Assembly: GCA_051294375.1 (NCBI GenBank) | Contig: JBJCIZ010001220.1 | Span: 1-40,849, forward strand | DNA: 40,849 nucleotides | From: Paraspadella gotoi | Lineage: Eukaryota > Animalia > Chaetognatha | Reading direction: 5' to 3' | Shown here: positions 20,395-40,727 of the stretch, one piece after another | How positions within the stretch are numbered: the stretch's first letter is position 1 | Layout: each line of letters opens with the position of its first letter | The notes under the pieces: generated by a model | What the model was told of the DNA's origin: nothing | Database searches by the model: none | The model's input: the letters and a program-made list of their open reading frames with translations, nothing else | Program-made: the position numbers and the translations under genes

Positions 20395-20395
20395 T

Positions 20396-20810: not shown

Positions 20811-20959
20811 CGTAGTAAAAAAGAGCAGGTAGATATAGGGGTAAATACTGAAAAGTTTGAAAGAAAAAATTACTGAAGCCTATAAAATTAAAGAAGGAAA
20901 AGATAAAGTAAGGTTTGAATAGCAAGGGGTTGCAGTGTAAGTAAGGGAAGAAGGAAAGA

Positions 20960-21334
20960 ATGAAGAAACGTATAGACTCGAATATAGATGGGTTAAACCC
21001 TATCATAAATATCGAAAGGATTCCTGGTTCAGATGAGATTTTAGGTTGGGTTGAAGAGGAATTACCTCAAATTGATAAAAATCTCGATGTAGTTGAGGAA
21101 AGAAATTATGATGATTTTCAATCACTCCCTACTTACGCGTACGTTAATGCAGGAGTAAGGGGAATTGAGACAAGGTTAGGATTTGATACCGTTAGTGTAA
21201 AAACTTTATTATCTGAGGAGATGGTATGACATAATTAATACTGATGGAATGTATGTCTTGAACCCGCATGGATCCCAGTTTGAGGCCGTCAATGGTACAA
21301 AAATTGACATTTTTAGGTGATGTTAAATTGCCTG
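20960..21334 (+). pseudogene. Aspartic protease (retropepsin), N-terminal part, frameshifted
   Basis: RLGFDT(V)SVKTLLSEE resembles the DTG catalytic motif. It is followed, with indels, by FEAVNGTKIDI.GDVKLP, a flap-like segment, and is cut at 21334 by the nested LTR element. Confidence 0.75.
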
Positions 21335-21613
21335 TGAGGCGACTTACCTCCGTGTCTCTTTCCCTAAACCCTTCCTCTCTCCTCTTTCTTCGAGCCGGTC
21401 TATTCCACACGGTCACTTTGCCCTAGCTTTGGCAATGACCTTAGATTGACCGACACAGTAATAGGGCCAAAGGCGACGTAAGGTCAAGTTGGTCCGGGCG
21501 ATGATAAAAGTGGATCAGGAGAGAGCTAGACTCACTTCTTTCTCTACTTCTCTTACATCGTCACAATTCTTACACCTTTTCTCACTTTTATATTACTATT
21601 TTCGTCCTCTTCA
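21335..21613 (+). repeat. 5' LTR of the nested gypsy element
   Basis: TGAGGCGACTTACC...TCTTCA; near-identical to 25987-26263; followed by TTGGTGAGCCG (PBS-like). Confidence 0.93.
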
Positions 21614-21798
21614 TTGGTGAGCCGAACTTCCGAACACAACAGCAACAACAACACTTTCAGGCGACATGCTCAACTTGGGCGATGCACTATCCGCCACAAC
21701 ACATCAGGCGACATGCCTCAACTTGGTGACGAACTTTCCACCAACAATTACAATTCACTGAAGAGACGCAACAGACTTCTCCCTACGGGAGGGGGGGA

Positions 21799-22050
21799 TG
21801 TATGGTGGACTAAAATCCACCATCCGTTCATCAGTGGCCATTGGTGCCGAGGCAAGTCATTCGCCTCCCAACCCAAAGGTCCCGGGGTTCTAGCCCGCGT
21901 GGTCAGTCTAGCAAGGGACGGGGCGCTTAAACCCGCCTGTAACAAGGTGTTACAGCCTGATCCGAAGCTCAGGGACTGCTTATATTGAACGTTTCTGTCA
22001 TTAACATATATCAATAATCACTGTCTCTTCAAACTCTTTCAACTCCTCTC
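21799..22050 (+). repeat. LTR-like segment of a second family containing a tRNA-like cloverleaf (copy 2)
   Basis: Starts with TG directly after the purine tract GGGAGGGGGGGA; highly similar to the reverse complement of 11036-11308. The right boundary is approximate. Confidence 0.7.
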
Positions 22051-22059
22051 CTGATTTAG

Positions 22060-25000
22060 TCAATGGACTTTGTTTCTATCATCGGACATTTGGAGATCGA
22101 GCAATCAAAATGCTACCCAGGATGCAAGCGGGGGAAACGGCCGAGCCAGCAGCCGGAGGCAGTAAACGCCGCTGCTGGTAGTACAGAACCCTTACTGCAC
22201 GTGTACGACACACAACAAACAACTTGACATGCTTGTGGACGGTGGTGCAAGCGTCTCTTTGATGCGCCTTTGCCATCAAGAAAAGCTCCGCGGTGGCTCC
22301 GCGCCTCAACTTCATGCTGCAAACGGGTCTCCATCTCTTCCTACGGCACCAAAACAAATCACTAATCAGACTAGGAAGACGACAACATACCTCACTAACA
22401 ACCGTACCTCGCTGACGTTACGACCCCTATTCTTGGAGCTGATTTTCTGATGGGAGCATCATTTAGACGCGACCAACAAGCTCGGCCTACTCGTGATCTT
22501 GATGATTTTTCAACAATCGCAGGCAAATCTTACCTGGACAGGCCTTTCAGAGTCATACAGTCAATAATGCCTATTTCAAATTGATTGGACGAACGCCCAG
22601 AACTCACACAACTCAGATTTGACCCTTCGAAGACCAAGCATGGTGTAGAACACCACATTCCAACCGAGGGTCCGCCTGTCCACTCCCAAGCACGCCGACT
22701 TGCACCTGAACAAACTCAAAGCAGCCAAAGATGAATTTGCAAAAATGGAGAAGCTGGGCATTATACGGAAGAGCAAGAGTGCTTGGGCATCACCACTACA
22801 TGTGGTTAAAAAACCTGATGGCTCACTTAGATGTTGCGGCGACTACAGGCGCCTCAACGCAGTCACAAAAACAACCGCTACCCATCAAAAATTTGATGGA
22901 TTTCAATGCCCATGTCGCAGGCAACAATTTTTTCAAAGTAGACCTTTGTAAGGCACCATCAAGTACCTGTAGCAGAGCAGGATATTTGCAAGACAGCCGT
23001 CATCACTCCCTTTGGCTCTGGGAATTCCCGTTCACCCATTTGGTCTCAAGAATCAGGGCCTGATTTTCAAGGATGATGGATGAAGCCCTCAAAGATGTAC
23101 ACACATCTTTGTATATCTAGATGACATCCTGGTCGCCTCAAGCAACGAGGAAGAACACATGCAAGATCTCACACTACTGTTTGACACCCTGCAAGCAAAT
23201 GGTTTAGTAGTGAACAGGGCAAAATGCGTACTGGGCGTACCATCACTCGATTTTCTCAGTTACCAGGTAGACGCAACAGGCGTCAGGCCATTGGACACAA
23301 AAGTCGAAACAATCAAACAATTCCCACAGCCAACATCAGTCAAAGAGGTTCAAAGATACTTGGGCATGCTCAACTACTACCGGCGTTTCATTCCACACAT
23401 CGCCGAAGTCCTTACACATTATACCAAGCCTTAAAAGGCAACCCCGAGTCCTCAAATGGACCGATGAGATGACTCAAGCTTTCAAACAAGTCGAAAGAAG
23501 CTCTGGCAAACGCACTATGCTTGTCCACCCTGTGGACGGGGCACCTCTGGCCCTGACCGTCGATGCGTCACTAACGGCCATTGGCGGCGTCCTGGAGCAG
23601 AAGATTGGTGTCAATGGCAACCTTAGGCTTTTCTCAGCCCCGCTAGCTCAGAACCAGACAAAATGGCCACCTTTCGACCGGGAACTCCTTGCCGCACATC
23701 GCTCAGTCCGGCACTTCAGGCCTTCCCTGGAAGGGCGCTACTTCATTCTGTTCTCTGACCAGAACAGCCTAGTTCCCGCCATACGCAAGAAATCTGAGCC
23801 ACACTCAATGCGTCAAACATATCAATTATCTGCCATCTCCGAATACACAACAGACATCCGATACATCGAGGGCAAGGCCAACGTGGTAGCGGACACACTA
23901 TCAAGAATCATCAGCCCAGCAAGCAGTGGCCCCAAACCTGAAGGATCATCAGGACCTCAGAAATGCCCTCGTTGGTCGCAACGGTCAACGCAAGTTGGCC
24001 CCAAGGCGTCGATTTTGCCGCTTTAGCCGGCGACCAAAGTTCCGACGAGGAGATCCAGCGACTCCTAGCGGACGCCCACACCAGCCTGCGATTCAAGATA
24101 GTTCGCCTGAACGACTTTGACATCATCTGCGATGTCAAGTTCAGGAAGGGCGCGCCCCTTGGTTCCCACAACATGGCGCCGTCGAGTTTATGATGCCATC
24201 CACAACCCTCGCTCACCCGAGCGTCAGATGCACAAAAAAGCTGGTAACAAAGAGATTTGTTTGGCCAAAAGCCGCCGTCAGACGTGGCAAAATGGGCTCA
24301 GGCTTGCCTTGACTGCCAGCGCAGCAAGGTACACGACACACCAGGCTCCACTACAACCTTTCGAAGCACCATCGAGGCGTTTTGAACATGTTCCACATTG
24401 ACTTGGTGGGTCCCTTGCCCACTTCAGGCGTTACACGTACCTTTTAACCTGTGTAGACCGTTTTTTCCCGTTGGCCTGAAGCATATCCCCTTCGGGATAT
24501 CTCCGCAGTAACCGTAAGCAACAGCCTTCCTTCAGAACTGGATCGCCAGATTCGGCGTACCAGCCACAGTCACTTCCGACCGTGGAACACAATTCACTTC
24601 TGAATTGTGGCATCAGCTGAGCCAAGCTATAGGCTACAAGCTCACACACCACAGTATACCACCCGCGAGGCGAACGGGATGGTCGACGGTTTCACCGTAC
24701 ATGAGACATCATTGAAAGCGCGTTGTGATGCGTCCGGCGCAAATTGGTTCAATCAACTACCTTGGGTCTTATTAGGACTCAGGTCTGCACCAAAAGAAGA
24801 CCTACAAGCATCACCAGCAGAACTTGTATTCGAGATACAATAGCAATCCCAGGCGAACTGGTAATAGGTACACAGCCAACAAGAAGCAAATGCCCAAAAT
24901 GAGAGCTGCAAAACTTGAGACACGACGTTGCATTGTTGAGACCAGTAGTTCTAATTGGCACTCAAACCCACCTGTTCATCTTCCTCACAGTCTTGCTCAG

Positions 25001-25150
25001 CAAACTGGGTTTTTGTGCTCCGTGCCAACAGGGTCACTCTCTCGCTACGCCCTACTTGGGCCTTACAAAGTAGTCTCAAGAGATACAAGACCTTCACAGT
25101 GGACATCGCTGGCGAGACAAGAGAAGATCTCCATCGACAGGATCAAGCCA
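22060..25150 (+). pseudogene. pol: Frameshifted gag tail and pol of the nested gypsy element
   Basis: Fragments: GLCFYHRTFGDRA.KC.PGC (gag tail), LVDGGASVS (PR), SAWASPLHVVKKPDGSLRCCGDYRRLN and YLDD near 23113 (RT), LTVDASLTAIGGVLEQ...ADTLSR (RH), HIDLVGPLP, TSDRGTQF and EANGMV (IN). Many 1-nt indels, from decay or read error. Confidence 0.92.
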
Positions 25151-25986
25151 GCAACAACAGAACCGGATGTCCAACCAACACCTCCAGCAGCCCCAGAAGA
25201 GGACGACCACCAGCAGCAACAGGCGAGTCGTTTCCTAGGGGGGAAGGTCAAACAAATAATAGAGACAAGAGTCAGCCCACGGAACCGACTCCACTCATCT
25301 CCAACATTTATACCTCAGGCGACGCAACCTCAACAGCAACGTCAACAAGAACCTCCACAGCAACAGCACGAGCGCCACCACGACACAATCCACTCGACAA
25401 CCAACACGAATCCAACTCAGAGACAAGCACGTGCAAGACAATACCATCGTCTGGGTTCTGAAGGAATAGATATATATTGTATTAGATGTCTAAGATCAAC
25501 TATCAGTAATTCGCGAGATCCGTGATTGTTGGATAAACCGGTTATCAGCACTATCCACAAATCATCACCAGTTGGTCACTGTTACGATTAATCACAACTT
25601 GCCTAACAGCAAGTAACATCAAAAACAAAATCATCAACAGCTGGTTATTTTCATGATTTAACCAAGCTTGCCTAATAGCAAGCAATCATCATAACACTTT
25701 GACCAAACATCATTTTTTCTATCTCCCTACTATCCTTTTTGTAAAATTTCTTCACAAAATATTTTTTTTTTTTTGAGAAGAGATATATGTAAATATTTAT
25801 TGTAGAAGACAAACCCCTTTTTAGTGGGTCCCCCAATTGTTTTCTCCTAGACCTTATTGTTTTGCCCAAATATTCCCCAAGGAGAAACAATATTGTAAAG
25901 TACTTTGTTCCTTAACTAGTAGTACAAGTCACTCAACTGTAAATAGGGTCAGTTCGAACCCCTAAGGTCCGAACTTGAGGGGGGGA

Positions 25987-26263
25987 TGAGGCGACTTACC
26001 TCCGGTCTCTTTCCCTAAACCCTTCCTCTCTCCTCTTTCTTCGAGCGGTCTAATTCCACACGGTCACTATTGCCCTAGCTTTGGCAATGACCTTAGATTG
26101 ACCGGACACAGTAATAGGGCCAAGGCGACCGTAAGGTCAAGTTGGTCACGGGCGATGATAAAGTGGATCAGGAGAGAGCTAGACTCACTTCTTTTCTACT
26201 TCTCTACATCGTCACAATTCTTCACCTTCTCACTTTTATTATTAACTATTTTCGTCTTCTACA
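25987..26263 (+). repeat. 3' LTR of the nested gypsy element
   Basis: TGAGGCGACTTACC...TCTACA; preceded by the polypurine tract GAGGGGGGGA; followed by TSD CCTG. Confidence 0.93.
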
Positions 26264-26267
26264 CCTG

Positions 26268-26352
26268 TAATGTTTTATGGGTTTAATAATAATTAATTTA
26301 GCTACAATTAAATTTTATGTGATTAGAGGTTAGAAATTCAAGGTCTCCTAGG
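26268..26352 (+). pseudogene. Host protease fragment between two insertions
   Basis: Reads LATIKFYVIRG..IQGLL. It joins across the CTAGG TSD to G-L-D-E-I at 27687, restoring an LLGLD motif (retropepsin ILGxD-type). Confidence 0.75.
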
Positions 26353-27681
26353 CACTATTCATCGAAATAATTTTTTTTTATCGGAATAAGGTTAGTTCAT
26401 CGTACAAAAATAATATATGCTTTTAATTAATTAGGGACTATCATCGAGAAACCTCTCAAGCAATATCAGTTGTCAAAAATCATTTCTTTAGGAGATATAA
26501 GCTATTTCTCTATTTCAGACTCACTTTGTCGACTATATTCCTGGAACTTTATGGATGAATTTACTTTTTTTTTTAAATCTTGTATAAAACAAATGGAATA
26601 ACCTAGCATGGATTAAATACAAAATTTGTTCTAAAAAATGTTTTACTGTATCTGAGTTTTTTGAAAACTAGCTTAATTTATATAGGGAATCATGGGGGAA
26701 TCACTACCATTCTAATTAAATATAATGATTAATATTAATAACGGACTTGATGTATTCGGGATTTCATCCCGCATCGATCCGCAAAATGAGTAATGCCAAA
26801 ATGATTTTCAAAATTAATTTTTTTTTCTAACACTTCGATAAGTAACTTAATTTTTTTAACTGCGATTTTGAAGTGGTTAAGAAACTAAATTGTCTTCATG
26901 GCTGGATGACTCAGAGTCGCATGGGATCGAAACAAAAATGAGGTATATTTGTTTAGGGTTTCGGTTAGGGATAAGGTTAGATTAGGGGATAGAGATTAGG
27001 GTTATGGATTAGTGTTAGAGATTAGGGTTAGGGATTAGGGTTAGGGATTAGTGTTGTTCTTTCCTACGCGTTATAGATCTCTCAGAAGGGTGAGCAACTG
27101 ACGGAAAACCCCGCTCATCACTACTTTTACAATAAAAAAATGTTGGTTGTGGGTGTGTCTCATCGGTCGGGATGAAGATCGACAGAAACAACGACGATAA
27201 TTTGAAATTTTGAACGATGGAGGAAACACAGTTGTAAAAATATTGTTAGAAATTTGACATCAAATGTTTTCTTTAAAAGAAGGAAAATGCTAAAAAAAAA
27301 CCATAATTTGTAAACTTCAAATTAATAATTTTACTCAATATCTATTTTGAACTTCCATCTTTAATCAAAAATTAGTAGTTAAAAACACGTTAGTACTATT
27401 AACTTCCTCGCTTAACTTGTTGAATCAAATTGCTCTTTAAACTTTTGTTTAAGCGTATTTGAGAGGCAAAAAATTTAAAAAAAGCTAAAAAAAATGCGCG
27501 TAGCGTTCGGGTTATCTTTAGGAATCGTAAAAAAATCAAATTTTACATTTTGGTCCTTTTTTGGAAATATTAAGATTTTACGAGAAGAACCTCTAAAGTT
27601 TTCAAGAATTACTCTGGTTAAGCTATCCGAATATGCCATTATATAATTTTTCCGATTTTAACGTTCACTTCGATCATAGTG
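26353..27681 (-). mobile_element. Non-autonomous Transib-like DNA transposon, copy B
   Basis: CACTAT...ATAGTG termini, 5-bp TSD CTAGG (26348-26352 and 27682-27686), reverse-complement match to 14343-15518, internal degenerate TTAGGG tract. The superfamily is inferred from CAC ends plus a 5-bp TSD. Confidence 0.85.
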
Positions 27682-27686
27682 CTAGG

Positions 27687-28108
27687 GTTAGATGAAATTT
27701 GTCGTCATTCTTTTAATGTTAATTTGGCAGATGGCACTTGTTTTCAGCCAAAGGCGGGTCAACATGCATATAAATTTTGTTTATAAAAACCAACGGGAAA
27801 TTAGAAAAGTTACGATTGCAGAGGACATAGTTTTGCCTCCACAATCTGCTTGTGACATAAGGGTTGAGATTGACGGTGTGAAAGATGAGGGAGGTGAAGG
27901 AATTATTCAACCTTTTAAGGATATTTGGAAATATGGTATAAATGCAGGGAGAGTTTTAACATTAGCTAAACCTACAGTTATAACTAAAGTAATTAATCAA
28001 GGGACTCGTAGGTTAGCCTTGGTAAAAGGGGAAGATTTTGGTTCATTTACGTTTTCGCGCCCATTACCAATTTTAATTAATACTGTAAGCGAGGGAGAGG
28101 AAGAGTAT
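27687..28108 (+). pseudogene. Host pol protease end and PR-RT linker (possibly a degenerate dUTPase-like beta domain)
   Basis: IAEDIVLPPQS...VINQGTRRLALVKGEDFGSF resembles the linker seen in many gypsy pols. It continues across the AAGAGTAT TSD toward the RT ORF with a 1-nt offset. Confidence 0.65.
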
Positions 28109-30423
28109 TACACTGTTTTTTTTTAACCATGTAGTCGAAAATTTTCACAATCCTGTACAGTTTCTAGTATAATTTTAAGTGCTTAAAACGATTAACAAGG
28201 TGTCGTCAATCAGATTTTGCATTAGACCTACGCACAATTTACCGGAAGTTGGCGTGGACTACAATATGGAATTTTTCTTTTATCTACAAATGAAAAGTTA
28301 GGCAGTTGTTTACAATCCTGCAATGAGTATAATTATTTAATAAGTAGTACTTAGACAAAAATGTTCAAAAAATAGTTTTCATCAATAGTGGGCGTGTCCC
28401 AAACCGGAAATAGTGCTCGATAATCAATTAAATATGTATTATTAAAAGTTTTTGATCTATTCTGACTGCTAATGGTTTTTTACTGTTATATGACAGCTTT
28501 ATCACAAAGGATTATCATCATATAATAAAAAAATCCTATCATATTTTCAATTATTTCTCTACTTAAAAAGATTCGTTTTTTAATAGCCAAAGGACTTATA
28601 ACTTTAACTTGAAATATTCAAAATTTCATTTCGATTTCATTCAATTAATGAGACTTTGCTAATTTTAACAATTCCTGGTTTATTTTTTAATACCTTTACT
28701 AATTTAATTTTTTTCATCAGTAATTTTTTTACTGGCATACCATTTTTTTGCTCAAAAACTATGGCCGGAAGTTAGACCCTTTTTTCATAAAGTTTATGTA
28801 AATCTTTAGAGGGAATACCCTATTTTTAAGTTTTTCCAGGTGAAGGAGAAGAGAAACAATATCCATGCATCAAAAAGTTAATCAGATTTATAATTTTCTT
28901 TTCTTTTCCTTAAAAAAAACCTTTAATCCAGCAATAAAATTATCATTTATACCATTATGTGAAATCCTTTCTTTCCTCACGTTTTTGAATAGAAAGAGTT
29001 TGAAGTAGTTCAAGCAACAATTTTTCTTTAAACAGTGAAAATGTGTTTTTTTCAATATCTACCTCTCTCTCTCTGGCCTAAACCTAACCTGTCTTCACCT
29101 CGACCTCTATCCTTTTCTCAAATCTTTGTTGAAAATGTTTTCTCTATCTCTTTCTCTCTCTGTCTCTTCCCTTGCTCTCACCTAATTCTCACTCTTCTTC
29201 CTTTCTCTCCTCACTCTCCCAAATATTTCTTGTGAAGTAAAAAACTGTTAACAATTCATAAATGTGGATGAAGACTTGAATTAAAAGTTAAAACATGTTC
29301 ACTGTTTAAAATCTGATACAAATATAAGATCAGTTTTAATAAGCTGTATAAACTTTATTAATTAGTTTTTTTCTATTTAGTTTCATTTAACTTTAGTCCC
29401 AAGGGTTTTAGAAGTAAGACGACTCTTATTCAAACCTGGAGTTATTATATCAAGTTTCATTATGATAAATAATACAGCAATATAAAATTATTAAATATTT
29501 TATTGTTTTGACAAGAAATAACAAATATTTAGTATTAAGCAATTCATAGTAGAATTTACAAGTTCATTTTTATTACTTTCATGCTAATATTTTGATCCTA
29601 TGAACAAATCATTTTTAAAGGCAGTTCTTTTGTATTTTGCTTCTCTCTCTTTCTTTCTCTCTCTCTCTACCTGACTTTTTCTGGGACAATTTACTTTTAC
29701 TCTGGACTGCCTTTAAAAATGATTAGTTCCTAAGAATCAAAATGTTGGCAAAAAAGTGAGAAAATTATACTTATAAATCCCACCACGAATTGCTTAATCT
29801 AAATATTTTTTTATTCCTTGTCAAAAAAAAAGTTTATATGCTTAATACTAAATCATTATCTCCTGTGCATATGATGTCTCTTCAACATCGAATAATGAAA
29901 TAATATTAATTCTGAATTTTAACAGTTACTAAGAAACGAAACTTTTGTAACTAATATTTATTTTGTCTATTTAAAGCTATGATAGTTTTTTATGATATAT
30001 ATGATAATTCTTTGTGATACAACTATCATATGACAAATAAAAACCATTATATTTATAGTAGATCAAAACTATTAATATTGCGTATTTTATCAGTTTTTGA
30101 ACGTCATTTCCGGTTTTGGACACGCCCACTATTCGTAAGAACCTTTTTTTAAAAACATTTATAAAGTAAAACTTATCAAATAATGAGAGTAACTTAAAAT
30201 TTAGGCAATTATTATTTTTATAAAACTATTTTCTTATCTTGCAATTAAAGAAAAGAGAAAAATTCCATGTTGTAGTCAACATCAACTTCCGGTCAATTGT
30301 GCGTAGGTCAACGCAAAATCTGATTGAGGACACCTTGTTAATCGTTCTAAGCACTTAAAATTATACTAGAAACTGTACAGGATGTAAAAATTTTCGACTG
30401 CATGGTTAAAAAAAAACAGTGTA
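28109..30423. mobile_element. Non-autonomous long-TIR DNA transposon (MULE/foldback-like, superfamily uncertain)
   Basis: TACACTG...CAGTGTA ends. TIRs are near-identical for about 170 bp and recognisable to about 430 bp. 8-bp TSD AAGAGTAT (28101-28108 and 30424-30431). No transposase ORF. Confidence 0.88.
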
Positions 30424-30460
30424 AAGAGTATGCAGACTGTCTTGGGTAAGCGAGGAATGT

Positions 30461-32212
30461 GTGGAAGATACAATGGTTTATGAGGATTTTGAGAGTAAGA
30501 AGCTTGAAGAGATCTCTTTTGGGCTAGAAAAGTCAATATTAAATGACGAGCAAAAAGAACAAGTTAGGGATGAATTAATGAAGCATAAAGAAGTTTTTCA
30601 GTGGGAAGATCGCCCTGTCAGTAAGACAACTAAAACAAAGCATAAGATAGTGCTTAAGCCAGGTACAAACCCTGTTAAGCAGAAAAATCGTAAGTTTAGT
30701 GAAGAACAAAACGCGTTTATAGATAAGGAGGTTCAGAAATTAATTGCACAGGACATTGTACAACCCTCAATTAGCAATTGGAATTCGAGAATTGTATTAT
30801 CATGGGAAGAAAGAAAAAATAGATGGCGTTTATGCATAGATTATCGTGCAGTTAATTCTCTTTGTGTTGCCCCTTTAGCCCATCCGCTGCCTAACATAAA
30901 ACAGCTATTAGATCAGTTTAGGGGGCAGAAATGGTTCCATACACTTGATTTATTTCAGGGATATCACCAGTGTCCGTTAGAAGAGGAATCAAGGCCAATC
31001 ACAGCCTTTTCTACTAAGAAAGGGTTGTTCGAGTTTAAGAGGTTGCCCTTTGGCTTGAACTCTGGCCCAACAAGTTATCAGGCATTAATGGAAGAAATAT
31101 TAGAGGAAATGTGCTGGAAGGAGGCAGTTGTTTATATTGATGACGTAATAATTTTTGGTAAAACGCTGGAGGAGGCTAATGATAGGCTATTTAGAGTTCT
31201 AAAGAAATTAAAGGAAGGGGGAATGAAGCTAAGAGCGGTGAAATGTCGACTTTTTCAATCCTCTGTCGAATTTTTGGGTTTTGTCATCTCTGACAAAGGG
31301 ATTAATACATGTAAGCATATTGTTGATGCGGTCACTAATTTTCCAATACCAAAGAATGTGAAAGGAGTACAAAGGTTTTTAGGGATCTGTAATTATTACC
31401 GTACTTTTATTAAGTCTCATAGTCAAATATTAGCCCCTATAATTAATTTGACGAGAAAAGGTGTTCCATTTAAATGGACAGAAGAGTGTCAGCAAGCCAT
31501 GGATACGTTAAAACAAAAACTTATCAGTGCTCCAATAAGAAATTATTATGATCCTAAACTCCCTATAGTTCTAACCACAGACGCGTCAGGGAGAGGGATC
31601 GGTGCGACTCTATCTCAGCTTGATAGAGAGGGTAAACTGGTTTTGTTAGCTTATGGGTCCCGCACCCTGAAAGCAGCGGAGGTCTCATGGAGCACTACTG
31701 AAAAAGAGTGTTTCGCGATTGCCCATTGGGTCAAAAAATTTCGGCATTATCTGACGGCTCCTTTCATAGTTTTTTCTGATCATAGTAGTTTGAGATATGT
31801 CTCAACGATGAGAGATTCGTCTCAAAAAATTTGTAGATGGTTGAATTTTTTGTCGCAATTTAATTTCGAGGTCCACCACAAGCCAGGAAATAGTAAGGAG
31901 TTGGTTGTTGCAGATATTTTGAGTCGTGTGCCATATGATAAAGAGGATAGTGAAGAGGATAAAATGGCGGTTAAAATGCAAAAGCCCATTCTAAGGCTTT
32001 ACTCCGCTTATGGTAGTCCAATATTAACGTCATGGTTTAAAATAGAAAAACCAACTAAAGATGATTTTGATGAGAACCAAGAATTAGTCGTCAACAACGA
32101 GATTGTTGAAGTAAAGATAGGTGAAGGTAAAGAAATACAATTAAGACGGTCACTTAAGAAAATGCAGAAGGAGACAGAAAAGGAGGAAAAAATTAATTGT
32201 GCATTTGGTTAA
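30461..32212 (+). CDS. pol: Reverse transcriptase plus RNase H of the giant gypsy element (no integrase in frame)
   Basis: WRLCIDYRAVN, TLDLFQGYHQ, LPFGL, VYIDD (RT); TTDASGRGIGA, EKECFA, FSDH, ADILSR (RH). 583 aa without interruption. Confidence 0.96.
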   Translation: MEDTMVYEDFESKKLEEISFGLEKSILNDEQKEQVRDELMKHKEVFQWEDRPVSKTTKTKHKIVLKPGTNPVKQKNRKFSEEQNAFIDKEVQKLIAQDIVQPSISNWNSRIVLSWEERKNRWRLCIDYRAVNSLCVAPLAHPLPNIKQLLDQFRGQKWFHTLDLFQGYHQCPLEEESRPITAFSTKKGLFEFKRLPFGLNSGPTSYQALMEEILEEMCWKEAVVYIDDVIIFGKTLEEANDRLFRVLKKLKEGGMKLRAVKCRLFQSSVEFLGFVISDKGINTCKHIVDAVTNFPIPKNVKGVQRFLGICNYYRTFIKSHSQILAPIINLTRKGVPFKWTEECQQAMDTLKQKLISAPIRNYYDPKLPIVLTTDASGRGIGATLSQLDREGKLVLLAYGSRTLKAAEVSWSTTEKECFAIAHWVKKFRHYLTAPFIVFSDHSSLRYVSTMRDSSQKICRWLNFLSQFNFEVHHKPGNSKELVVADILSRVPYDKEDSEEDKMAVKMQKPILRLYSAYGSPILTSWFKIEKPTKDDFDENQELVVNNEIVEVKIGEGKEIQLRRSLKKMQKETEKEEKINCAFG

Positions 32213-32972: not shown

Positions 32973-33752
32973 ATGTCGCTGCACCGATTGCCAGCTGGGG
33001 TGAAGCGAGAAATCATGACGTATTTACCAGTACGGGACAAGATCGCGGCGGCTGAAGCCTCGCCGGTCTTCGACGGAGTCCTTGACCTACAAGTGGAAAC
33101 GTGTACAACTTTCAACATCCACCAAAAGAAATCACTAGTGCTGGCATTGTGCGAGACAGACGATGTGGAAACGATGAAAAACGCCTTCGAGGTCACGGCT
33201 TACCAATTCATCCACGTCATCATTGCACGAAGTCTTATCGAAACGAATGATCCAGAAGAAACGGCGCAGCTGGAACGGTGGCTAAGACTAAGTACTAATA
33301 ACGGACAATATCAATTCACCTCAATTGAACTAACGGGAAAAGCAGGGTCTTGTGGATGTGTTTTCGCGGAAATTTTGAAATTTGGAAGAGGTATTACTTT
33401 TTCTGATACACAAGAGTTTCATTTGTTGAATTTAGTAGTAGAAAATATAGATCCTGTTAATGAGGGTAAATTTTTTATTTATAATGGGAAGGCAAGTTTG
33501 AACCAGATTGCACGTATCGCCAATGGGTTAAAATATGGCATCCGATTTCACGCGAGGAGCGATAAAGCATTTATTGATCAAGGGGCCACCGAGTTGCCTG
33601 GTAGAATTGATAATCTTAGTTGGTTTTCACGTGGTGAAATGTGTCGATACCTACCGTCTTGTTTTTTTGGAATTCGTGCTAACATGGTATTACTCGAATG
33701 GTACAAAACACCGCTTAAATTATTGAATGCCCAGGCAGTTTTATTTCGATAA
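32973..33752 (+). CDS. F-box-like protein, 259 aa
   Basis: The N-terminus SLHRLPAGVKREIMTYLPVRDKIAAAEASPVF fits the F-box pattern (L..LP.....I..YL...D). The remainder is unrecognised. Confidence 0.7.
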   Translation: MSLHRLPAGVKREIMTYLPVRDKIAAAEASPVFDGVLDLQVETCTTFNIHQKKSLVLALCETDDVETMKNAFEVTAYQFIHVIIARSLIETNDPEETAQLERWLRLSTNNGQYQFTSIELTGKAGSCGCVFAEILKFGRGITFSDTQEFHLLNLVVENIDPVNEGKFFIYNGKASLNQIARIANGLKYGIRFHARSDKAFIDQGATELPGRIDNLSWFSRGEMCRYLPSCFFGIRANMVLLEWYKTPLKLLNAQAVLFR

Positions 33753-34032
33753 TTTGTATTGGAGTTCAATCCCTGGTGCCGAAATTTTTTTTTTGATTCA
33801 TACTTTTGCTAATTGTGTTTATAATTTAATTTTGGCTTCATTAGCGTAGCGAGTGCCATTAATAGTGAAATTATTAACAAACTTATTCTTAATTCGAATT
33901 TTGATGATTGAATTGTTTTTCCTGGAAAAGTCGCTTAATCAACTCCGACTGTTACATTGTCGACAATGAATTGTATTTGTCTTAATTCATTGAAACTTAC
34001 AGAATTAATTCCTGAATCATAAGCAGACCGAG

Positions 34033-34987
34033 ATGAATCCTTACGAGAATCCAGCTCAGCAGCCTCAGTGCACGATCTCGGGGTTTACGTACCCCACGGA
34101 CCCTCAAGTGCAAAACCAAATCATGTTACCTGAGGTGAGAAAGGATATAATTGTAATGAAAATATATAACACGTACTAAAAATGTAACAAAATGGCGTCA
34201 TAAACTATGAATAAATAAATGAGAAATAAATAAATAAATGGGAAAGTAATAAATTATAAATTAAAGAGGACCCAAATAAAATGGGCTTAAATATTAATAA
34301 ACAAACATGTCCCTCTCTCAGGACTGGATAGTTTTACAGCACGCACAAGAGATGGCGGCAGTGGCGGCTGCGTCGTCTAACCCGGGTACATCAACGCCGA
34401 TAGACCCACGACTGGTGAAACAAAGAGTCGGTCAAGCTGTCTTCCCGACCGGGGATCCATTTGCGATGCAGGAACCTGCTGCGGAAGTCGAAGTTCAGAC
34501 TAATATAGCAATGGGGCTTGAAGCGCGCCCTAAAGAATCGCCACGCGATTACGATCTCAGCGACATCAAAGACACGGATATGCCCGCGGAAATAAGGATA
34601 CTGGATAAAGAAAATTACCCTCAAAGGTATTCGGCCACAGCGCGGGTCGGCAGAGATCAAAGCCTTTCCGAAGGTGCAAAACGTAGAATTGAATGCAACG
34701 AGTGCCACGCTACGTTTGAGACTTACCAGCAAAGGAACGGACACAAAAAGTCACACGTGTATAAGTGCGAGCTCTGTGGGACGACGGTGAAGGGAAAAAT
34801 TTTGCTCGATGCGCACCTTGATCTTTCCCACAAAAATCTGTATCGCTGCCTGGAATGCCACGAGCAATTTGAAGAAAGAGGGGAAATTATTCAGCACATT
34901 CTTTTGCACGAGGGCTTTGAGAAGATTGCTCGGGAAATAACCTCGATGATCAAACTGGAGACCCAGGGACTCATGCGTAGCGAGTAA
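34033..34987 (+). CDS. 3xC2H2 zinc-finger protein 1, probably two exons (34033-34134 and 34322 or 34340-34987)
   Basis: CNEC..H..H, CELC..H..H and CLEC..H..H fingers. An upstream 34-codon ATG exon ends GAG|GTGAGA, followed by an AT-rich intron and in-frame CAG acceptors. Confidence 0.8.
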
Positions 34988-35380
34988 CCAACGTTTTATT
35001 ATTATGTTTTCTGTTTCAAAGACACTCAATTGGTTTCCTTAAATGATTCTGTATTATTACAAATTACGAATAAGTAATACGTTTTGGTTCTTGTGATTAA
35101 TTCTGACACTGATTATATTTGTTTGTCATAACCTTGCTTGCCAACGTACGGTCAATACTGAGTTCTAAAGTAACGTTTCTGTTATTATGATCTTTTTTAT
35201 ACATTCTCTATTAGCCGAAAGGCTGTCACCAACCCAAAATAATTTGGGATTTTATTTTGAATGATACGTTATGAAAAACCTTTTTATTTCTTGAAGCTGC
35301 TAAAAACTTCATTGTTTTATGGCATGGTACATCTTATTTCTTAATTCCATGATTCACTTTAAAAAACATTTCAGATTCTA

Positions 35381-36034
35381 GTGCATTTAAAAATAATTAT
35401 AATCGAAAGAGACTCGACCCTCAAGATGGATATGCCCAACGGTCAAATCATGCTTATTAATCCCAAGACGGGGAAACCGACAACGTCGTCAGATCTTCAG
35501 ATGGTCAGCATGGGAAATCACACCATGAATATGGGTTACGATAGCAGCTCCATTGTGGGTGGCGCCAATATCCCGGGAGGCCAGGCCAACGGTGACACAG
35601 CGCCTTACGACAACAGATCCCCATTGTACGGGCTGAGGGGATCGACGAGGGGAAGAGGCCTTGAATCCTCACTAAGCGATGATCAAGATTGGCAACCACC
35701 AGGTCGGGAACAAGATCAAGGCGGAAGACGGCCACAAAAACTTTTTGAATGCATGAGTTGCAACAAATACTTTCGCTCGGCGCGCAGTAGAAACGCGCAT
35801 ATGAGAAAACGTCATTTTGAATGTGGCTTGTGTCACAAAGCATTTCCTAATCGTATTTATTTTGATTTACATATCGAAAGCAGGCACGCAACCTCACATC
35901 AATGTATCATTTGTAATAAATTTATCAGGGATAAAGGTAATATTATTATGCACGTTATGATGCATAAGGAATTAAAAGGGCCTGCAGAGAAAATCCTTTC
36001 TTATATTGCTACTGACAGTGACGAGAATGAGTAG
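35381..36034 (+). CDS. 3xC2H2 zinc-finger protein 2 (first in-frame ATG at 35426)
   Basis: CMSC..HMRKRH, CGLC..HIESRH and CIIC..HVMMH fingers after a low-complexity N-terminus. Confidence 0.85.
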   Translation: MHLKIIIIERDSTLKMDMPNGQIMLINPKTGKPTTSSDLQMVSMGNHTMNMGYDSSSIVGGANIPGGQANGDTAPYDNRSPLYGLRGSTRGRGLESSLSDDQDWQPPGREQDQGGRRPQKLFECMSCNKYFRSARSRNAHMRKRHFECGLCHKAFPNRIYFDLHIESRHATSHQCIICNKFIRDKGNIIMHVMMHKELKGPAEKILSYIATDSDENE

Positions 36035-36419
36035 ATTAAAATTTCCTTTCTCTTTACGATTCGGAAAGATTAAACAGGAGGTTGGTTTGGCGTAGTGATA
36101 TAAAGCTCAATTGGTTTTTAGTGTATGAAGTAACCGTAATGCTAAATTGTTCTTTGCTTGATTAGTATTAAACGTGATTTCAAGAATCGTTGCAAATATT
36201 ATATTTTCATGACTTTATATTTCAATGTATTTTCATTTTGTCATCTTCTTAATTAAATACTCGTGTGGTGTTCGTGTGATATAATTGATACAAACAATAA
36301 ATTTCTCTTCTTGTTCAATGTTCATTATCAGAAATAAACACTCGTAATAGTGGTATCATATCGTTGTCCTTCTGTATTGAAAAACATTAAGTACTAAGTG
36401 AGATCAACGTATATTAAAA

Positions 36420-37577
36420 ATGAATCACGTGTCCTTAGCTAATACTAACGAACTAGTTGAAAAAGGAGAACTTCAGTCCCAAATTAAAAGGGAAAAAGAA
36501 AAGAACACTAAGTTACTACAAAAATTAAATAAAGAGGAAATTAATAAAACTGAGTTGCGCCGTCTGGTGTCACAAGTATGTCAAGGTCTAAAATTTAATC
36601 GCAGTGAGAGAAATGGAAAAACCTATGTGTGCCTTAAAAAAGAAATAGGCGCCGAAGAAAAATATTTGGTTGAGATTGAGACGCTGACGTATATCCTGAA
36701 GTCAGCGGGAATCTTACAAGAAGTTATATTAAAGATGAACCAATTTGAACAAGGTGACGAGGGTGCGGATGACAAGAAAACCGACGACTTGGTGAAGATC
36801 CTGCAGGAAGAAATGAACGCAGAGGCCGACGGAAAGGAGAGAGCTTACTTAGAAAGAGAAAGAGAGCTTGAAAAAAGAAAGAGGGCGCTGGACAGAAAAG
36901 AGGCAAGTCTTGAGAAAAATTTTTGTTTATTACAGAACATGCAAAAAGAATTTGTGGAATTATTACAAGCCAAGCTGGAACGCGATCAAGAAATGTATGG
37001 AAATAAGTTGGCAGAGGAACGGGAAATGCAAGGGCAAGAGAAAGGATTACCATTAAGTGCTGGAGACCATAGTATGCAAGAGGAGTTAGTGGTAAATGTC
37101 TCGCCAGAAGAAATTATGGAAATCGAATTGGAGGCGAGCGAAAGTGAAAAGCAAAGTAAATCATCAAATCCAAATAGTAGTGTGAGTAATTTAGGGGATG
37201 AGAAAAATAATGAGATTTTTAAAATCCAAAACGGCACGAAGTATTATATGAAAAAGCTGAAAGAAATTAGAGTGAAGCACGGTTGCAAGGTTAAAATCAG
37301 TAAATTTTTAAAACCATGGGTGAAAGAATGTATACTTATAAGAAAGCATGGAAGGATTCCGTCGAGCCTCATGAGATACTTTAACGCAAAAATGGTCTGT
37401 AGCAAATGTTTTTGCCTGGAAGTAAGGCACCTCGATCCAGGGTGCAAGGTTCTTTGCTGTGGAATTGAGAGATGCGGCAAATGCTTTCACCAACATCATG
37501 GAAAAGAATGCCCGTGTCCACACACCCGCGAATTCGTTGACTTCGTTCAGGACGGTCCACTGTTTGAAACTAACTAA
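36420..37577 (+). CDS. Unknown protein with coiled-coil segments and a C-terminal Cys/His cluster, 385 aa
   Basis: Long intact ORF; E/K/L heptad-like stretches; CSKCFC...CKVLCCGIERCGKCFHQHHGKECPC. Confidence 0.75.
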   Translation: MNHVSLANTNELVEKGELQSQIKREKEKNTKLLQKLNKEEINKTELRRLVSQVCQGLKFNRSERNGKTYVCLKKEIGAEEKYLVEIETLTYILKSAGILQEVILKMNQFEQGDEGADDKKTDDLVKILQEEMNAEADGKERAYLERERELEKRKRALDRKEASLEKNFCLLQNMQKEFVELLQAKLERDQEMYGNKLAEEREMQGQEKGLPLSAGDHSMQEELVVNVSPEEIMEIELEASESEKQSKSSNPNSSVSNLGDEKNNEIFKIQNGTKYYMKKLKEIRVKHGCKVKISKFLKPWVKECILIRKHGRIPSSLMRYFNAKMVCSKCFCLEVRHLDPGCKVLCCGIERCGKCFHQHHGKECPCPHTREFVDFVQDGPLFETN

Positions 37578-37846
37578 TGAATTATACGACGGCCACACGA
37601 GAAACTCTTGTGGATGTATAGAGACTTTTATAATGGTATAAGAAATGAATTTCAAATAGGCATTGTTTAGATACATTGTCGGAATTCCGTAGTGAGTTAA
37701 TAGTGATTTAATAGTGCGGTAATCGTTATTTAGTAAGGATCCTATTTTTAGAAATTTTAATGAAGTTAATCGTTCCTGTTCACAATTTCTTTTAAATTTT
37801 TTTTTTTCTTTCCTTGATTTTGTGTTCCTCTTTTTTCAGTTAAATA

Positions 37847-39487
37847 ATGGAATTAGAACTTGGAGATACTATCGTCAATCTTTTTGAAACTAATGCCCCG
37901 AAAACAAATGAACTCCAGCGGGCCCAAAGTCAGGATGAAGGAATAAAAATCATTATGAGATCCATCGAAAGCGGAGAAAAGCCCGATTTCAACAACGCGG
38001 CCGTAAAAGGTTACAAGTCGGTTTTCCGATCACTCGAAATTCATGACGGCGTCCTCGTCCGAAAAACCGCCAGCGGCGGCAAGGCGGTTGTAGTCCCTGA
38101 AAGCAAGATTAGCGATGTTCTGTATCATACACACGGTAGCCCAATGGCGGCGCACTATGGCATTAGTAAGTCTTATTATAAATTGGTGAAAAATTTTTAT
38201 TTTCCTAAAATGGTTTTAAGACTCTCAGAGTTTATTAATACTTGTCCATTATGCGTTAGGAGAAAAAATCCTAAAAACACTCCTCGAGCTGAAATACAGC
38301 CAATTAGCGTCGATGCATACGACATTGGGGCATGCATTTCATATGACTTTAAGGGGCCATTGCCAGTGAGTAATAAATCCGTGATTTATCAGTGTAAAAA
38401 TCGATTTGTCTTAGTAATAATTGATCACGCCACTAGGTACGTCTTGGCCTATCCAACGCCCACGATGGAAGCCTCAGTGGTGGCGGAGGTGATCGTCTCG
38501 TCCTGGATCCCGCGATTTGGAGTTCCAAGGGCCATCATATCGGACAGGGCCAAAACTTTTACTGGTAGGATACTAAGAACAATTTATGAATCCTTACAAA
38601 TAGATGTATGTTTAACTGCATCATATAATCCAGCAGCTAATGGCTTAATTGAACAAGTTAATAGAAATATCTCTAGTATATTAGCAGTAATGTTAGATGG
38701 GTCTCTAGAAGATTGGCCAAAACAATTAAATTTATTATTCTGTGCTTATAATAGCAGTCCTAACATAGCAACGGGTGTGTCTCCTAATTATTTAGTATAC
38801 GGACGGGAGTTGATCATGCCAATTGATCTTATTTTAACTAGGAGTGGGAACCATGGGTGGAAAGACAGAAAAGTCTTGGATGAACTTGAAGAGCGACTAA
38901 GAGCGCGAAGAAAGGTCATGGAATTGCTAGATTTAAGGTACGAAAAAGGGCAAGAAAAAAGAAGGGAAAAGTCGAAATTAGTGGCAAACATTCCTACGTA
39001 TAAAGTTGGGGAAGTAGTTGGATTTAAACCACCATTACAGCCTGGTAAATTAATGAAAGCATATGAAATTAATCATACAATAATTAAAGTATTGTCTCCT
39101 ACTACTTATGTCATAAGAAATAATGATACGGGATTCGAGAGAATAGTGAACGCGCGGAAATTAAAGAAAGCGCCAGTTCGAGATCTTAAGCCTAAAGATT
39201 GTCAAAAAGGAGGAGTAGTTATTGAAGAAGATTCTGACTTTTCAGATGCGTCGAGCGAATCCGAGGTCGACTATGAGAAGAATCTAGCCTCTGACAGCCA
39301 AGGCATGAGGGAATCCGCGCTGACTGGTGGCGAAAAGGAAGACGACAGCCTCGACACGATGGGGGACTCCACGCTGACAAGCAGCAAAGAGGAAGATGGG
39401 AGCTCTGAGGAAGAACCACAGTATGGGTGGAATAAAAGACTACGAAATAGACAATCCATTAAAAAACCAAAAAAGCTGGAATTGTAG
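37847..39487 (+). CDS. Stand-alone gypsy-type integrase, 546 aa
   Basis: HHCC (HGSPMAAH...CPLC), DDE core (SYDFKGPLP, ISDRA, NGLIE), GPY/F-like C-terminal domain, and an acidic tail followed by a basic one. Confidence 0.95.
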   Translation: MELELGDTIVNLFETNAPKTNELQRAQSQDEGIKIIMRSIESGEKPDFNNAAVKGYKSVFRSLEIHDGVLVRKTASGGKAVVVPESKISDVLYHTHGSPMAAHYGISKSYYKLVKNFYFPKMVLRLSEFINTCPLCVRRKNPKNTPRAEIQPISVDAYDIGACISYDFKGPLPVSNKSVIYQCKNRFVLVIIDHATRYVLAYPTPTMEASVVAEVIVSSWIPRFGVPRAIISDRAKTFTGRILRTIYESLQIDVCLTASYNPAANGLIEQVNRNISSILAVMLDGSLEDWPKQLNLLFCAYNSSPNIATGVSPNYLVYGRELIMPIDLILTRSGNHGWKDRKVLDELEERLRARRKVMELLDLRYEKGQEKRREKSKLVANIPTYKVGEVVGFKPPLQPGKLMKAYEINHTIIKVLSPTTYVIRNNDTGFERIVNARKLKKAPVRDLKPKDCQKGGVVIEEDSDFSDASSESEVDYEKNLASDSQGMRESALTGGEKEDDSLDTMGDSTLTSSKEEDGSSEEEPQYGWNKRLRNRQSIKKPKKLEL

Positions 39488-39576
39488 TGTTCTTTCATTA
39501 TTGATTTTGATTTGTATCTCGAATTCTGCTCTTTTCATTGCATATTAAATTAATAGTATGGTTTGAGGTTTTGGCC

Positions 39577-39591
39577 AGGGGGGGAAAGATG
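39577..39591 (+). promoter_or_regulatory. Candidate polypurine tract plus TG (3' LTR start at 39590)
   Basis: AGGGGGGGAAAGA|TGTG, 90 nt after the integrase stop, which is the canonical position. Confidence 0.55.
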
Positions 39592-39647
39592 TGTGATTCA
39601 CATCTTATTAATTTGATGTGTAAAATGAATTAATAGGTGAAATAACT

Positions 39648-40727
39648 ATGGCAATGGTACAATTATTAAAAGGAAGTGATCAGCATATAATAACAATGGC
39701 ATTAGAGTATAAGTTGCCTTACGCCCTACATGTTGCAGTTGAGCATGAAAGGGAAACAGTTGTAAAACGATTATTGGATGAAGACTTTGATACAAACGAA
39801 GTACGACCACGTGACGGGTATACGCCGCTTCATTTAGCTGTAGTAAGGAAGAACGCGACCATGGTTGAGCAAATACTGATAAGGGGAGGAAGCGTGATGA
39901 AAAAGGATTACTCAGGAAATACGTGTTTAGCAAAGTTGTTAAGGGAAAAATTTGATAGTAAGGCAAGACGGGTTATAAATTTAATTTTTGATAAAATGAG
40001 AGAGGAAGACTTTAAAGTGGAAAACATTCATGAAGAGTCTTTTTTACACATAGCGGCTTCTAACCCCGAGATTATAGAAATTAGGCTGTATCAAGAATTA
40101 ATAGAAAAGGGAGTGCCAATGGAAAACCATGATGCTTATGCCGGAAGAACATTTTTAATGAATCTTTGCCATTCAAATTGGGATGACGAGTTTATTATCG
40201 AAGTAATAAAAATGGCTACAGATAGAGGATTAAATATTAACCAAAGTGATAAGAGTCAGACATCCCTTTTACAATATGCAATAAATGAAGGAAATAGAAA
40301 GATAGTAGAGGCTATTTTAAAGAACCCTAACACATTGGTGTCGGCGAGAAACACCTATGGAATGACGCCAATGTGGAGCGCATCTCTTAAGGGGGACCTA
40401 AGAATGATCAAAGAAATTTATGCAGCAGGAGGGGAGATGAAGGATATGGCATTTGCTAATGCAGCAGCAAGCAGGAAAATTACTACATGGCAAGCAGCTA
40501 AAAGGTCCCGTCACGACTTCGTAGCAGGAAAAATATTAGAATTCATGACAGGTAGAGAGGATGGAAAAAACCCAGGGTTGATTGTCAAGTCCCTAAAACA
40601 CAGCGCTAAAATAGTAATCAGGCGGCATTTAGTCATGTGCAATCAGGAGAGAGTACTGCTTGACCAGTATAAGGAGCTGAGCCTCCCAATTATTCTTCAA
40701 AACTACCTACGCGACATAAAATATTAG
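39648..40727 (+). CDS. Ankyrin-repeat protein with C-terminal SOCS box (ASB-like), 359 aa
   Basis: Ankyrin motifs ALHVAV, GYTPLHLAV, SFLHIAA, GRTFLM, TSLLQYAI and GMTPMWSA. The C-terminus SLKHSAKIVIRRHL...LSLPIILQNYL fits BC box plus cullin box. Confidence 0.9.
   Translation: MAMVQLLKGSDQHIITMALEYKLPYALHVAVEHERETVVKRLLDEDFDTNEVRPRDGYTPLHLAVVRKNATMVEQILIRGGSVMKKDYSGNTCLAKLLREKFDSKARRVINLIFDKMREEDFKVENIHEESFLHIAASNPEIIEIRLYQELIEKGVPMENHDAYAGRTFLMNLCHSNWDDEFIIEVIKMATDRGLNINQSDKSQTSLLQYAINEGNRKIVEAILKNPNTLVSARNTYGMTPMWSASLKGDLRMIKEIYAAGGEMKDMAFANAAASRKITTWQAAKRSRHDFVAGKILEFMTGREDGKNPGLIVKSLKHSAKIVIRRHLVMCNQERVLLDQYKELSLPIILQNYLRDIKY

Follow-up and report, generated by a model that had tools for sequence, protein, structure and literature searches.

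Host cullin ligases are hijacked by several viral proteins, among them HIV-1 Vif and adenovirus E4orf6 (PMC3355856) and the ANK/F-box proteins of poxviruses (PMC4353913). Among retrotransposons the nearest precedent is the Burro elements of planarians, giant Gypsy-like LTR elements with ankyrin repeats and MATH, BIR and SUMO-like domains, for which meddling in host ubiquitination has been proposed; F-box goes unmentioned in the available sections of that review (PMC6431247). In the available part of another review, the additional ORFs described for LTR retrotransposons are placed upstream or downstream of gag-pol, and neither F-box nor ubiquitin is mentioned (PMC7264820). Ginger1 DNA transposons, as described in the accessible text of PMC2836005, combine a stand-alone Gypsy-like integrase with OTU/Ulp1 accessory domains, fused proteases and terminal inverted repeats, and have no reverse transcriptase. 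Kuafuorterviruses and Troyka elements are 5–6 kb long and carry IADD, VADD or LADD within their reverse transcriptase (PMC11673190). Our literature search turned up no retrotransposon that encodes F-box or SOCS-box receptors.

We analysed a window of 40,849 nucleotides (the whole stretch of DNA treated here) from the chaetognath Paraspadella gotoi. On its + strand lies the C-terminal part of gag with a CCHC zinc knuckle (20395..20810; Pfam zf-CCHC E 4.4e-05, above cut-off), the 5′ part being swallowed by a gap of 100 N at 20295-20394. It is followed by a probable protease region in a broken frame with a nested element inside (20945..21334, +), assigned by its position after gag and a D-T-V-S read by eye, Pfam giving no support. 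A pol stretch between protease and reverse transcriptase, in the position of a dUTPase (27682..28108, +), has no Pfam match and is continuous with the reverse transcriptase in contigs from three of the four sequencing runs. Reverse transcriptase (YIDD) and RNase H share an ORF at 30425..32212 (+; RVT_1 4.6e-30, RT_RNaseH 1.9e-31) that ends without an integrase, and no integrase match occurs from 31978 to 37853. Exactly at the joint between RNase H and integrase stand four extra ORFs, then a stand-alone integrase about 5.6 kb past the RT–RNase H stop, then an ankyrin–SOCS gene; three pol proteins of the ordinary kind align collinearly to the locus, with RT–RNase H before this block and integrase after it. 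The order gag-PR-RT-RNase H-integrase, with the protease placed by position only, is that of Ty3/Gypsy (Metaviridae). Because the integrase sits in its own ORF rather than forming the last domain of a single Pol polyprotein, the element is classed, from its domain order, as Gypsy-type and not as canonical. No LTR or other long direct repeat was found for it, the 5′ side meeting the N gap and the 3′ side leaving the window, nor was any tRNA found. Identity with Kuafuorterviruses or Troyka was rejected on the YIDD motif.

Three insertions interrupt the pol of the present copy. One is a nested, unrelated, high-copy Gypsy LTR element (21335..26264, +) with TG...CA ends, a CCTG target duplication, an RNase H match and very high read depth. 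The others have inverted ends and no assigned strand: 26348..27682, which has an inverted copy at about 14357-15468 and is crossed by a read joint (26347-27682) in run X2, and 28109..30426, with an 8-bp target duplication and a read joint at 28108-30446, which is presumably hAT-like.

Like Burro, the element is Gypsy-like and joins ankyrin repeats to ubiquitin-linked accessory domains; Burro, however, has most of these in a single polyprotein of 4,900 aa in which PR-RT-RH-IN are joined, whereas here the genes are separate, pol is split and the boxes are those of cullin adaptors (PMC6431247, available sections). The extra sense ORF that may follow the integrase in other LTR elements occupies the position of our ankyrin–SOCS gene, but those ORFs lie outside gag-pol, while four of ours lie inside pol (PMC7264820, available part). 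With Ginger1 the locus shares a stand-alone Gypsy-like integrase and ubiquitin-pathway accessory domains (PMC2836005, accessible text). Ginger1 identity was nevertheless rejected, as no YPYY was seen by eye and Pfam gave no C-terminal OTU or Ulp1 domain.

The first receptor-type gene is, as the original prediction had it, an uninterrupted ORF of 259 aa at 32973..33752 (+), preceded by a splice-acceptor-like TAG at 32965-32967. The F-box-like N-terminus claimed for it was confirmed, though by routes other than the Pfam and PDB searches. Pfam gives the protein no family at E <= 1, so that the curated F-box cut-off was not reached; PDB profile searches with the family or with the N-terminus alone found no F-box protein, and PDB sequence searches found no F-box or SOCS relatives. 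On the other side, the best ESM Atlas match reached 0.96, with F-box families making up all 10 of the best named matches. Removing P0077 (Ig repeats) as spurious from the 24 search matches left 23 diverged relatives (29-45% identical where they match, with a pairwise median of 31%), a divergence which argues that the protein was long kept under selection. Eight of the 24 matches have an F-box or F-box-like hit at the N-terminus (E 0.0026-0.23, all below cut-off); an N-terminus is complete in 12 relatives, and these eight are among them. In the alignment P7 is kept in 12 of 13 and L18 in 17 of 17; the F-box spacing pattern occurs in 12 of 13 against 0.125% of shuffles, and, as the pattern was written after the alignment had been seen, this is not independent support. 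The family has E28-A29 and A/S at positions where F-boxes usually have other residues. None of nine family clusters looked up is named beyond 'hypothetical protein', and a word-indexed search yielded none from 427 candidates.

The fold model built for this protein (pLDDT 92, pTM 0.89; 33 pLDDT from the single sequence) has N-terminal helices at 8-16, 20-29 and 31-36, followed by an alpha/beta solenoid. Residues 37-220 resemble RNI-like LRR solenoids, the best match having 174 residues aligned at Z 9.0 and rmsd 3.9; Skp2 scores Z 6.5 and TIR1 Z 6.0 (rmsd about 4). There is no Pfam LRR, and repeat proteins often reach such Z scores. Foldseek returned nothing at E <= 0.001 from two libraries (PDB, BFVD): the top PDB rows were TIM barrels with rmsd above 9 and Skp2 ranked 30, while many weak BFVD rows were filled by F-box/LRR proteins. 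In complex prediction, another of the checks proposed, residues 1-50 were predicted to dock onto a stand-in Skp1, not the host's own, with a score of 0.72 in each of three runs against 0.02 for the best of three controls. The runs share at least 75% of contacts, the interface lies on the C-terminal helices of Skp1, and partner pLDDT is 66-68. Among microbial pairs, 51 of 78 solved ones and 2 of 108 mismatched ones reached the pass mark used; among eukaryotic pairs, 71 of 105 solved ones and 2 of 126 unrelated ones did. Since the pairing of F-box and Skp1 is a textbook case, resemblance to structures already solved may account for the pass. The predicted layout, in which a three-helix box at the N-terminus precedes an alpha/beta solenoid and docks on the Skp1 C-terminal helices, resembles that of FBXL receptors such as Skp2 and TIR1 and of the divergent F-box families of nematodes and giant viruses; it differs from them in falling below the Pfam cut-off, in a solenoid lacking the LRR sequence signature and in relatives drawn only from metagenome contigs. 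As the window protein itself is unmatched and its eight matching relatives lie below cut-off, we file it as F-box-like; the name that suits alignment and model best is divergent F-box-like protein.

The second receptor-type gene, also where predicted, is an uninterrupted ORF of 359 aa at 39648..40727 (+), and here ankyrin repeats and a BC-box/cullin-box C-terminus were confirmed by Pfam (Ank_2 E 7.6e-21). SOCS_box spans residues 313-354 and, at 25.4 bits, exceeds its curated cut-off (23.5); the last 59 residues alone give 29.9 bits (E 6.6e-07). The BC box, S315-L-K-H-S-A-K-I-V-I324 (SLKHSAKIVI; residues 315-324), fits the consensus (S,T,P)LXXX(C,S,A)XXX-hydrophobic (PMC3355856). The cullin box (341-354) is slightly degenerate, reading L-S-L-P, with the fourth proline kept and the second lost relative to the Cul5 box L-P-hydrophobic-P; this stretch, 21 residues past the BC box, also fits the looser Cul2-box consensus. 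N-terminal ankyrins followed by BC and cullin boxes are the layout of the ASB family of CRL5 receptors, from which the gene differs in lying intron-less beside a retroelement integrase, in LSLP for LP-hydrophobic-P and in that we found no close host ASB. No close relative was found, the best 27 matches being generic ankyrin proteins.

That the element carries both receptors holds directly for the F-box-like gene, which lies in the RNase H–integrase interval, and by adjacency only for the ankyrin–SOCS gene, which begins 160 nt past the integrase stop. Only 122 nt of the window follow its own ORF, and the window contains no 3′ LTR; we infer that the gene lies inside the element ends. Joints between diverged integrase contigs and the ankyrin ORF (38670-40457, 38844-40485) are weak, with sides of 23-24 nt.

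Three more ORFs complete the block. C2H2 zinc-finger gene 1 (34033..34987, +; three fingers, Pfam zf-C2H2) has a probable 5′ mini-exon (34033-34134) and a 187-nt GT-AG intron, both predicted from sequence only; C2H2 zinc-finger gene 2 (35426..36034, +; Pfam) is its paralog (BLASTP E 1e-17, 28% over 108 aa). A coiled-coil-like protein with a C-terminal cysteine cluster (36420..37577, +) has no Pfam family of note, and its best Atlas match, a RING family (0.86, recognition 1787), is weak and gives a RING-like lead only. The accessory kit of the lineage proposed below would hold F-box-like, SOCS-box, possibly RING and two zinc-finger proteins.

The integrase (37847..39487, +; H2C2 finger and DDE core, Pfam Integrase_H2C2 and rve) starts at its own ATG, preceded by polypyrimidine-CAG, and in run X9, taken as RNA by guess, three GT-AG introns (38166-38259, 38366-38436, 38938-39245) are spliced out. 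We rejected a diverged sister copy as the source of these joints, since they have GT-AG ends and are absent from the three DNA runs. An X9 contig match begins at 32966, at the acceptor ahead of the F-box-like ATG, where a splice onto that gene is probable; the putative F-box message has a 28-nt leader, which may be a cis exon or a trans-spliced leader. Protein searching gave 14 stand-alone integrase relatives 53-63% identical, 10 of which have their starts only a few residues apart; all three protein searches spanned near lengths, so that fused Pol forms above 956 aa may occur in this lineage. The 14 form one group (support 100/100) on a long stem of 2.07, a lineage of stand-alone integrases. 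No loci of relatives were found in the viral or genome contigs searched, and the metagenome contigs yielded a single, distant integrase (28%).

Read depth bears on how the block belongs to the element. The block stands near single copy (84-93 in run X2 against 94 in the flank) and gag-RT at about twice that, depth falling from ~2x to 1x near 32300-32700, where read contigs part from the window. Such a step could mark two adjoining elements, an integrase-less gag-RT unit beside an integrase element that resembles Ginger or Polinton and owns the extra genes; the lack of an observed LTR would fit, and Ginger is defined by stand-alone Gypsy-like integrases in the accessible text of PMC2836005. We consider this decidedly improbable, as the block falls exactly at the pol joint, the Ginger marks YPYY, OTU and Ulp1 are missing, and contig depths of diverged RT and diverged integrase agree (137.3 and 136.5 in X2, 16-20 and 17.8 in X5), which is weak but concordant. 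Nor do 32200-33000 and 39480-40849 share an inverted match of 12 nt or a terminal inverted repeat of the Ginger1 type (40-270 bp), although an end may lie past the window. Single-copy depth would also suit a host-serving or passenger cassette, that is, a dead and nearly fixed copy with extra genes that the host keeps or tolerates; two other studies show 0-3 differences among the listed pieces, and all six downstream ORFs are open although the 5′ part took three insertions. Yet RT copies are only about 0.5% apart (8 differences in ~1,820 nt, run X5), and a young insertion would explain the same data; the integrase is likewise intact, diverged sister copies span RT, integrase and the SOCS end, and the nine family clusters looked up are labelled 'hypothetical protein' at most, so we find the cassette quite unlikely. 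Among the 40 variants listed (340 more are unlisted), 16 fall in coding frames, of which 11 are silent and 5 are not; one listed variant lies in the F-box-like ORF and four in the ankyrin–SOCS ORF.

What the receptors do is a separate matter. Both might bind Skp1 and Elongin BC and act as decoys, or as timers removing the element's own proteins, and the same SOCS profile and predicted Skp1 docking would fit. An imperfect cullin box, for which weak Cul5 binding of the SOCS1 type is on record (PMC3355856), and an element that appears to limit its own integrase through splicing would suit this too, but both proteins retain full-length substrate-type domains, the solenoid being conserved in its family, and the viral precedents target host proteins; we rate it unlikely. 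That the 32973 N-terminus looks like an F-box without binding Skp1, leaving one receptor, is a very slim prospect: the negative Pfam and PDB profile searches and the unusual residues noted above would speak for it, but ESM Atlas, the relatives' matches, the fold with its solenoid and the docking are four routes agreeing on an F-box. The claim of two cullin-RING substrate-receptor-type genes in a retroelement was supported, by profile for the SOCS box and, below the Pfam cut-off, by family, fold and predicted docking for the F-box.

Our preferred reading, to which we give about even weight, is a split-pol Gypsy-type element whose two predicted receptors send restraining host proteins to the proteasome. 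The F-box-like solenoid protein would be a substrate receptor for the host Skp1-Cul1 ligase and the ankyrin–SOCS-box protein one for Elongin BC-Cul5, with the solenoid and ankyrin surfaces as the predicted substrate-binding parts; candidate targets would be silencing or innate-immunity factors. Each downstream gene would come from its own spliced message, as in complex retroviruses, since acceptor-like sites precede five of the six downstream starts and splicing is seen in the one RNA-like run. Counter-defence through degradation of host proteins, as originally proposed, is plausible. The likeness to viral hijackers is a parasite-encoded receptor predicted to borrow a host cullin ligase, with accessory genes that, as in complex retroviruses, would be on spliced messages; the difference is that no homology to them was shown and that the carrier is a Gypsy-type element.

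To borrow cullin ligases for the targeted destruction of host restriction factors is a hallmark of complex viruses; for LTR retrotransposons this was unreported in the literature searched. A split pol with genes between RNase H and integrase is an architecture that annotation pipelines would misread, and it appears to be common to at least 14 related integrases. Somewhat more tentatively, we suggest that the element is one member of a lineage of complex retroelements in invertebrates that is as yet undescribed, with split pol, a spliced integrase and an accessory kit hijacking two to three ubiquitin ligases against defence, Vif-like and independently evolved in Gypsy-type elements. If the receptors work as predicted, their substrates, testable by substrate trapping, would point at the invertebrate proteins that restrain retroelements.

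Downstream of a gag zinc knuckle (Pfam, from 20395, plus strand), the plus strand carries a broken region in the protease position, a linker, and RT (YIDD) and RNase H domains (Pfam), in a frame that ends at 32212 without integrase. Next come, in order, an F-box-like ORF, a pair of C2H2 paralogs and a coiled-coil ORF with a cysteine cluster; behind these lie an integrase that has a separate ATG and, last, an ankyrin-SOCS ORF. Three ordinary pol proteins align collinearly to both flanks of the block formed by the first four of these ORFs, which therefore occupies the site of the 50–70-residue linker of a normal pol. The original prediction that the element carries both ORFs holds directly for the F-box-like one, between RNase H and integrase, and by adjacency for the ankyrin-SOCS ORF next to the integrase. 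No LTR of the element was found within the window, where the search was bounded by an N gap on the 5′ side and by the window end 122 nt past the ankyrin-SOCS stop.

Between gag and RNase H lie three secondary insertions, first a nested Gypsy LTR element with its CCTG target duplication, then two elements with inverted repeats; read contigs of three of four runs span the joint at the last of them. The Gypsy element (21335–26264) is high-copy, with an extremely high-depth SINE-like stretch near 21780–21990 that recurs inverted at about 11109–11305. Microsatellites, a SINE-like repeat and the presence of a SOCS-box gene suggest that the AT-rich host genome is that of an animal. Many small gaps separate the window from read contigs in 19109–28939 and none in 32684–40760; misassembly may therefore account for some of the 5′ breaks.

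The 359-aa ankyrin-SOCS ORF (39648–40727, plus strand) is intact. Pfam finds ankyrin repeats (Ank_2, E 7.6e-21) and, at residues 313–354, a SOCS box at 25.4 bits against a cut-off of 23.5 (29.9 bits for the tail alone), bearing out the proposed ankyrin repeats with a BC-box/cullin-box C-terminus. The BC box, SLKHSAKIVI, agrees with the published consensus (PMC3355856). The cullin box reads LSLP, against the LP-hydrophobic-P of the Cul5 box, whose fourth proline is the most important (PMC3355856); because this stretch also agrees with the looser Cul2-box pattern, Cul5 is the likely but not certain partner. The protein search gave no near relative, its 27 matches being generic ankyrin proteins.

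The 259-aa product of 32973–33752 (plus strand, likewise uninterrupted), which we call a divergent F-box-like protein, matches no Pfam family at E ≤ 1, and a word-indexed search found no homolog. In a full HMMER scan it matched 24 proteins, 29–45% identical over the matched stretches, of which all but an Ig-repeat protein were kept as the family (23). The nine family clusters looked up came from ENA or JGI contigs, and their only name was 'hypothetical protein'. Eight of the 24 proteins, or 8 of the 12 whose N-terminus is complete, have an N-terminal F-box or F-box-like match (E 0.0026–0.23), all below the Pfam cut-off. F-box clusters came top in the ESM Atlas (0.96; 10 of the 10 best named matches); PDB profile searches with the family and with its N-terminus alone gave no F-box protein.

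AlphaFold2 with the family alignment (pLDDT 92, pTM 0.89) predicts helices at 8–16, 20–29 and 31–36, then repeating strand-helix units. Residues 37–220 best match RNI-like LRR solenoids (Z 9.0, middling for a repeat fold; rmsd 3.9 over 174 residues), with Skp2 at Z 6.5 and TIR1 at 6.0; Foldseek gave nothing at E ≤ 0.001. Residues 1–50 were folded together with a Skp1 encoded on a viral contig, which served as a stand-in and matches solved Skp1 at E about 1e-52; the complex scored 0.72 in three of three runs (best of three controls, 0.02), with at least 75% of contacts shared between runs, a partner pLDDT of 66–68, and the interface on the C-terminal helices of Skp1. The docking mark is passed by 51/78 solved against 2/108 mismatched microbial pairs, and by 71/105 solved against 2/126 unrelated eukaryotic pairs. 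Because solved F-box–Skp1 complexes exist, this modelled pass shows likeness to them, not binding. Intron-less Skp1 genes occur on three viral contigs, L002, L004 and L006 (L002 and L004 giant-virus-type); that of L004 matches solved Skp1 chains at E about 1e-52.

Elsewhere in the block, the C2H2 paralogs (34033–36034) have three fingers each. A 5′ mini-exon followed by a 187-nt intron is probable in the first of them, which is uncommon in an element that copies itself via RNA. The coiled-coil-like ORF (36420–37577) ends in a cysteine cluster with a weak RING-family lead (0.86), which if true would make it a third ubiquitin-pathway gene.

The integrase split is not peculiar to this copy, since 14 of 26 search matches, 53–63% identical, lack an RNase H domain and the start positions of 10 of these agree to within a few residues. 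They form one group with the window integrase (100/100, long stem) in a midpoint-rooted tree that carries a long-branch warning. The search covered 300–956 aa, so the lineage may include fused members.

In X9, a run that is RNA by guess only, single contigs (depth 5.7–6.4) each join one of three GT-AG introns in the integrase ORF, 38166–38259, 38366–38436 and 38938–39245, with canonical donors (GTAAGT, GTGAGT, GTACGA); three DNA runs showed no such joints. Removing the first two together would keep frame and lose the zinc-finger cysteines and first catalytic Asp, and removing the third would truncate the protein. The integrase may be switched off by splicing. In another X9 contig the match to the window starts from an acceptor-like AG immediately 5′ of the F-box-like ATG (32965–32973). 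The 28 letters before that point map elsewhere, with no joint within 30300–40849; they would be either a cis exon lying far away or a leader added by trans-splicing. Acceptor-like sites precede five of six downstream ORF starts, which fits separate genes read from spliced messages, as judged from one run and single contigs.

The stretch is present in nine runs from one organism and three studies; four of the runs may be its source. Depth in run X2 (flank 94, block 84–93, gag-RT 167–184) suggests a single-copy block and two copies of gag-RT, contig depth being a rough guide. The block differs from listed pieces of the other studies at 0–3 positions; more diverged sister sequences span RT, integrase and the SOCS end, and the four variant sites listed at that end are either silent or hit one of the cullin box's two free positions. 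Across 32213–32972 depth drops to half and read contigs depart from the window; a sister copy may have another accessory block here, or none.

In Burro elements, which were suggested to interfere with ubiquitination, most of the ankyrin, MATH, BIR and SUMO-like domains belong to a single polyprotein (reviewed in PMC6431247), whereas here the accessory proteins are separate ORFs. Extra ORFs of LTR retrotransposons are described before or after gag-pol and, in the available text, never inside pol (PMC7264820), unlike the four here. Ginger1 is set apart by its TIRs and fused proteases (PMC2836005), and Kuafuor and Troyka have a different RT motif and size (PMC11673190, PMC12440569). The term F-box is absent from the available main text of an atlas of Arabidopsis TE proteins (PMC13547354). 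The literature listings searched gave no retrotransposon with F-box or SOCS-box receptors or this pol split; Repbase reports, subscription journals and supplements may contain one.

Other readings must be weighed. The receptors could act as decoys or self-timers, which seems unlikely, and we hold it about as doubtful, if not slightly more so, that the block is host-co-opted or a passenger. That two adjacent elements are present rather than one is improbable. A false F-box is very improbable; the relatives, Atlas matches, predicted fold and predicted docking stand against the missing Pfam match.

The two ORFs are confirmed, and the proposed interpretation is partly supported: a retroelement with two receptor-type genes has support, and their action against host silencing or restriction proteins is putative. 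On the simplest reading, to which we give an even chance, the element uses them to borrow host cullin ligases: it would make two receptors, the established SOCS box and the predicted F-box each borrowing a ligase and the repeat surface of each selecting a target to the element's presumed benefit, the scheme of box and target surface used by Vif, E4orf6 and poxvirus ANK/F-box proteins (PMC3355856, PMC4353913).
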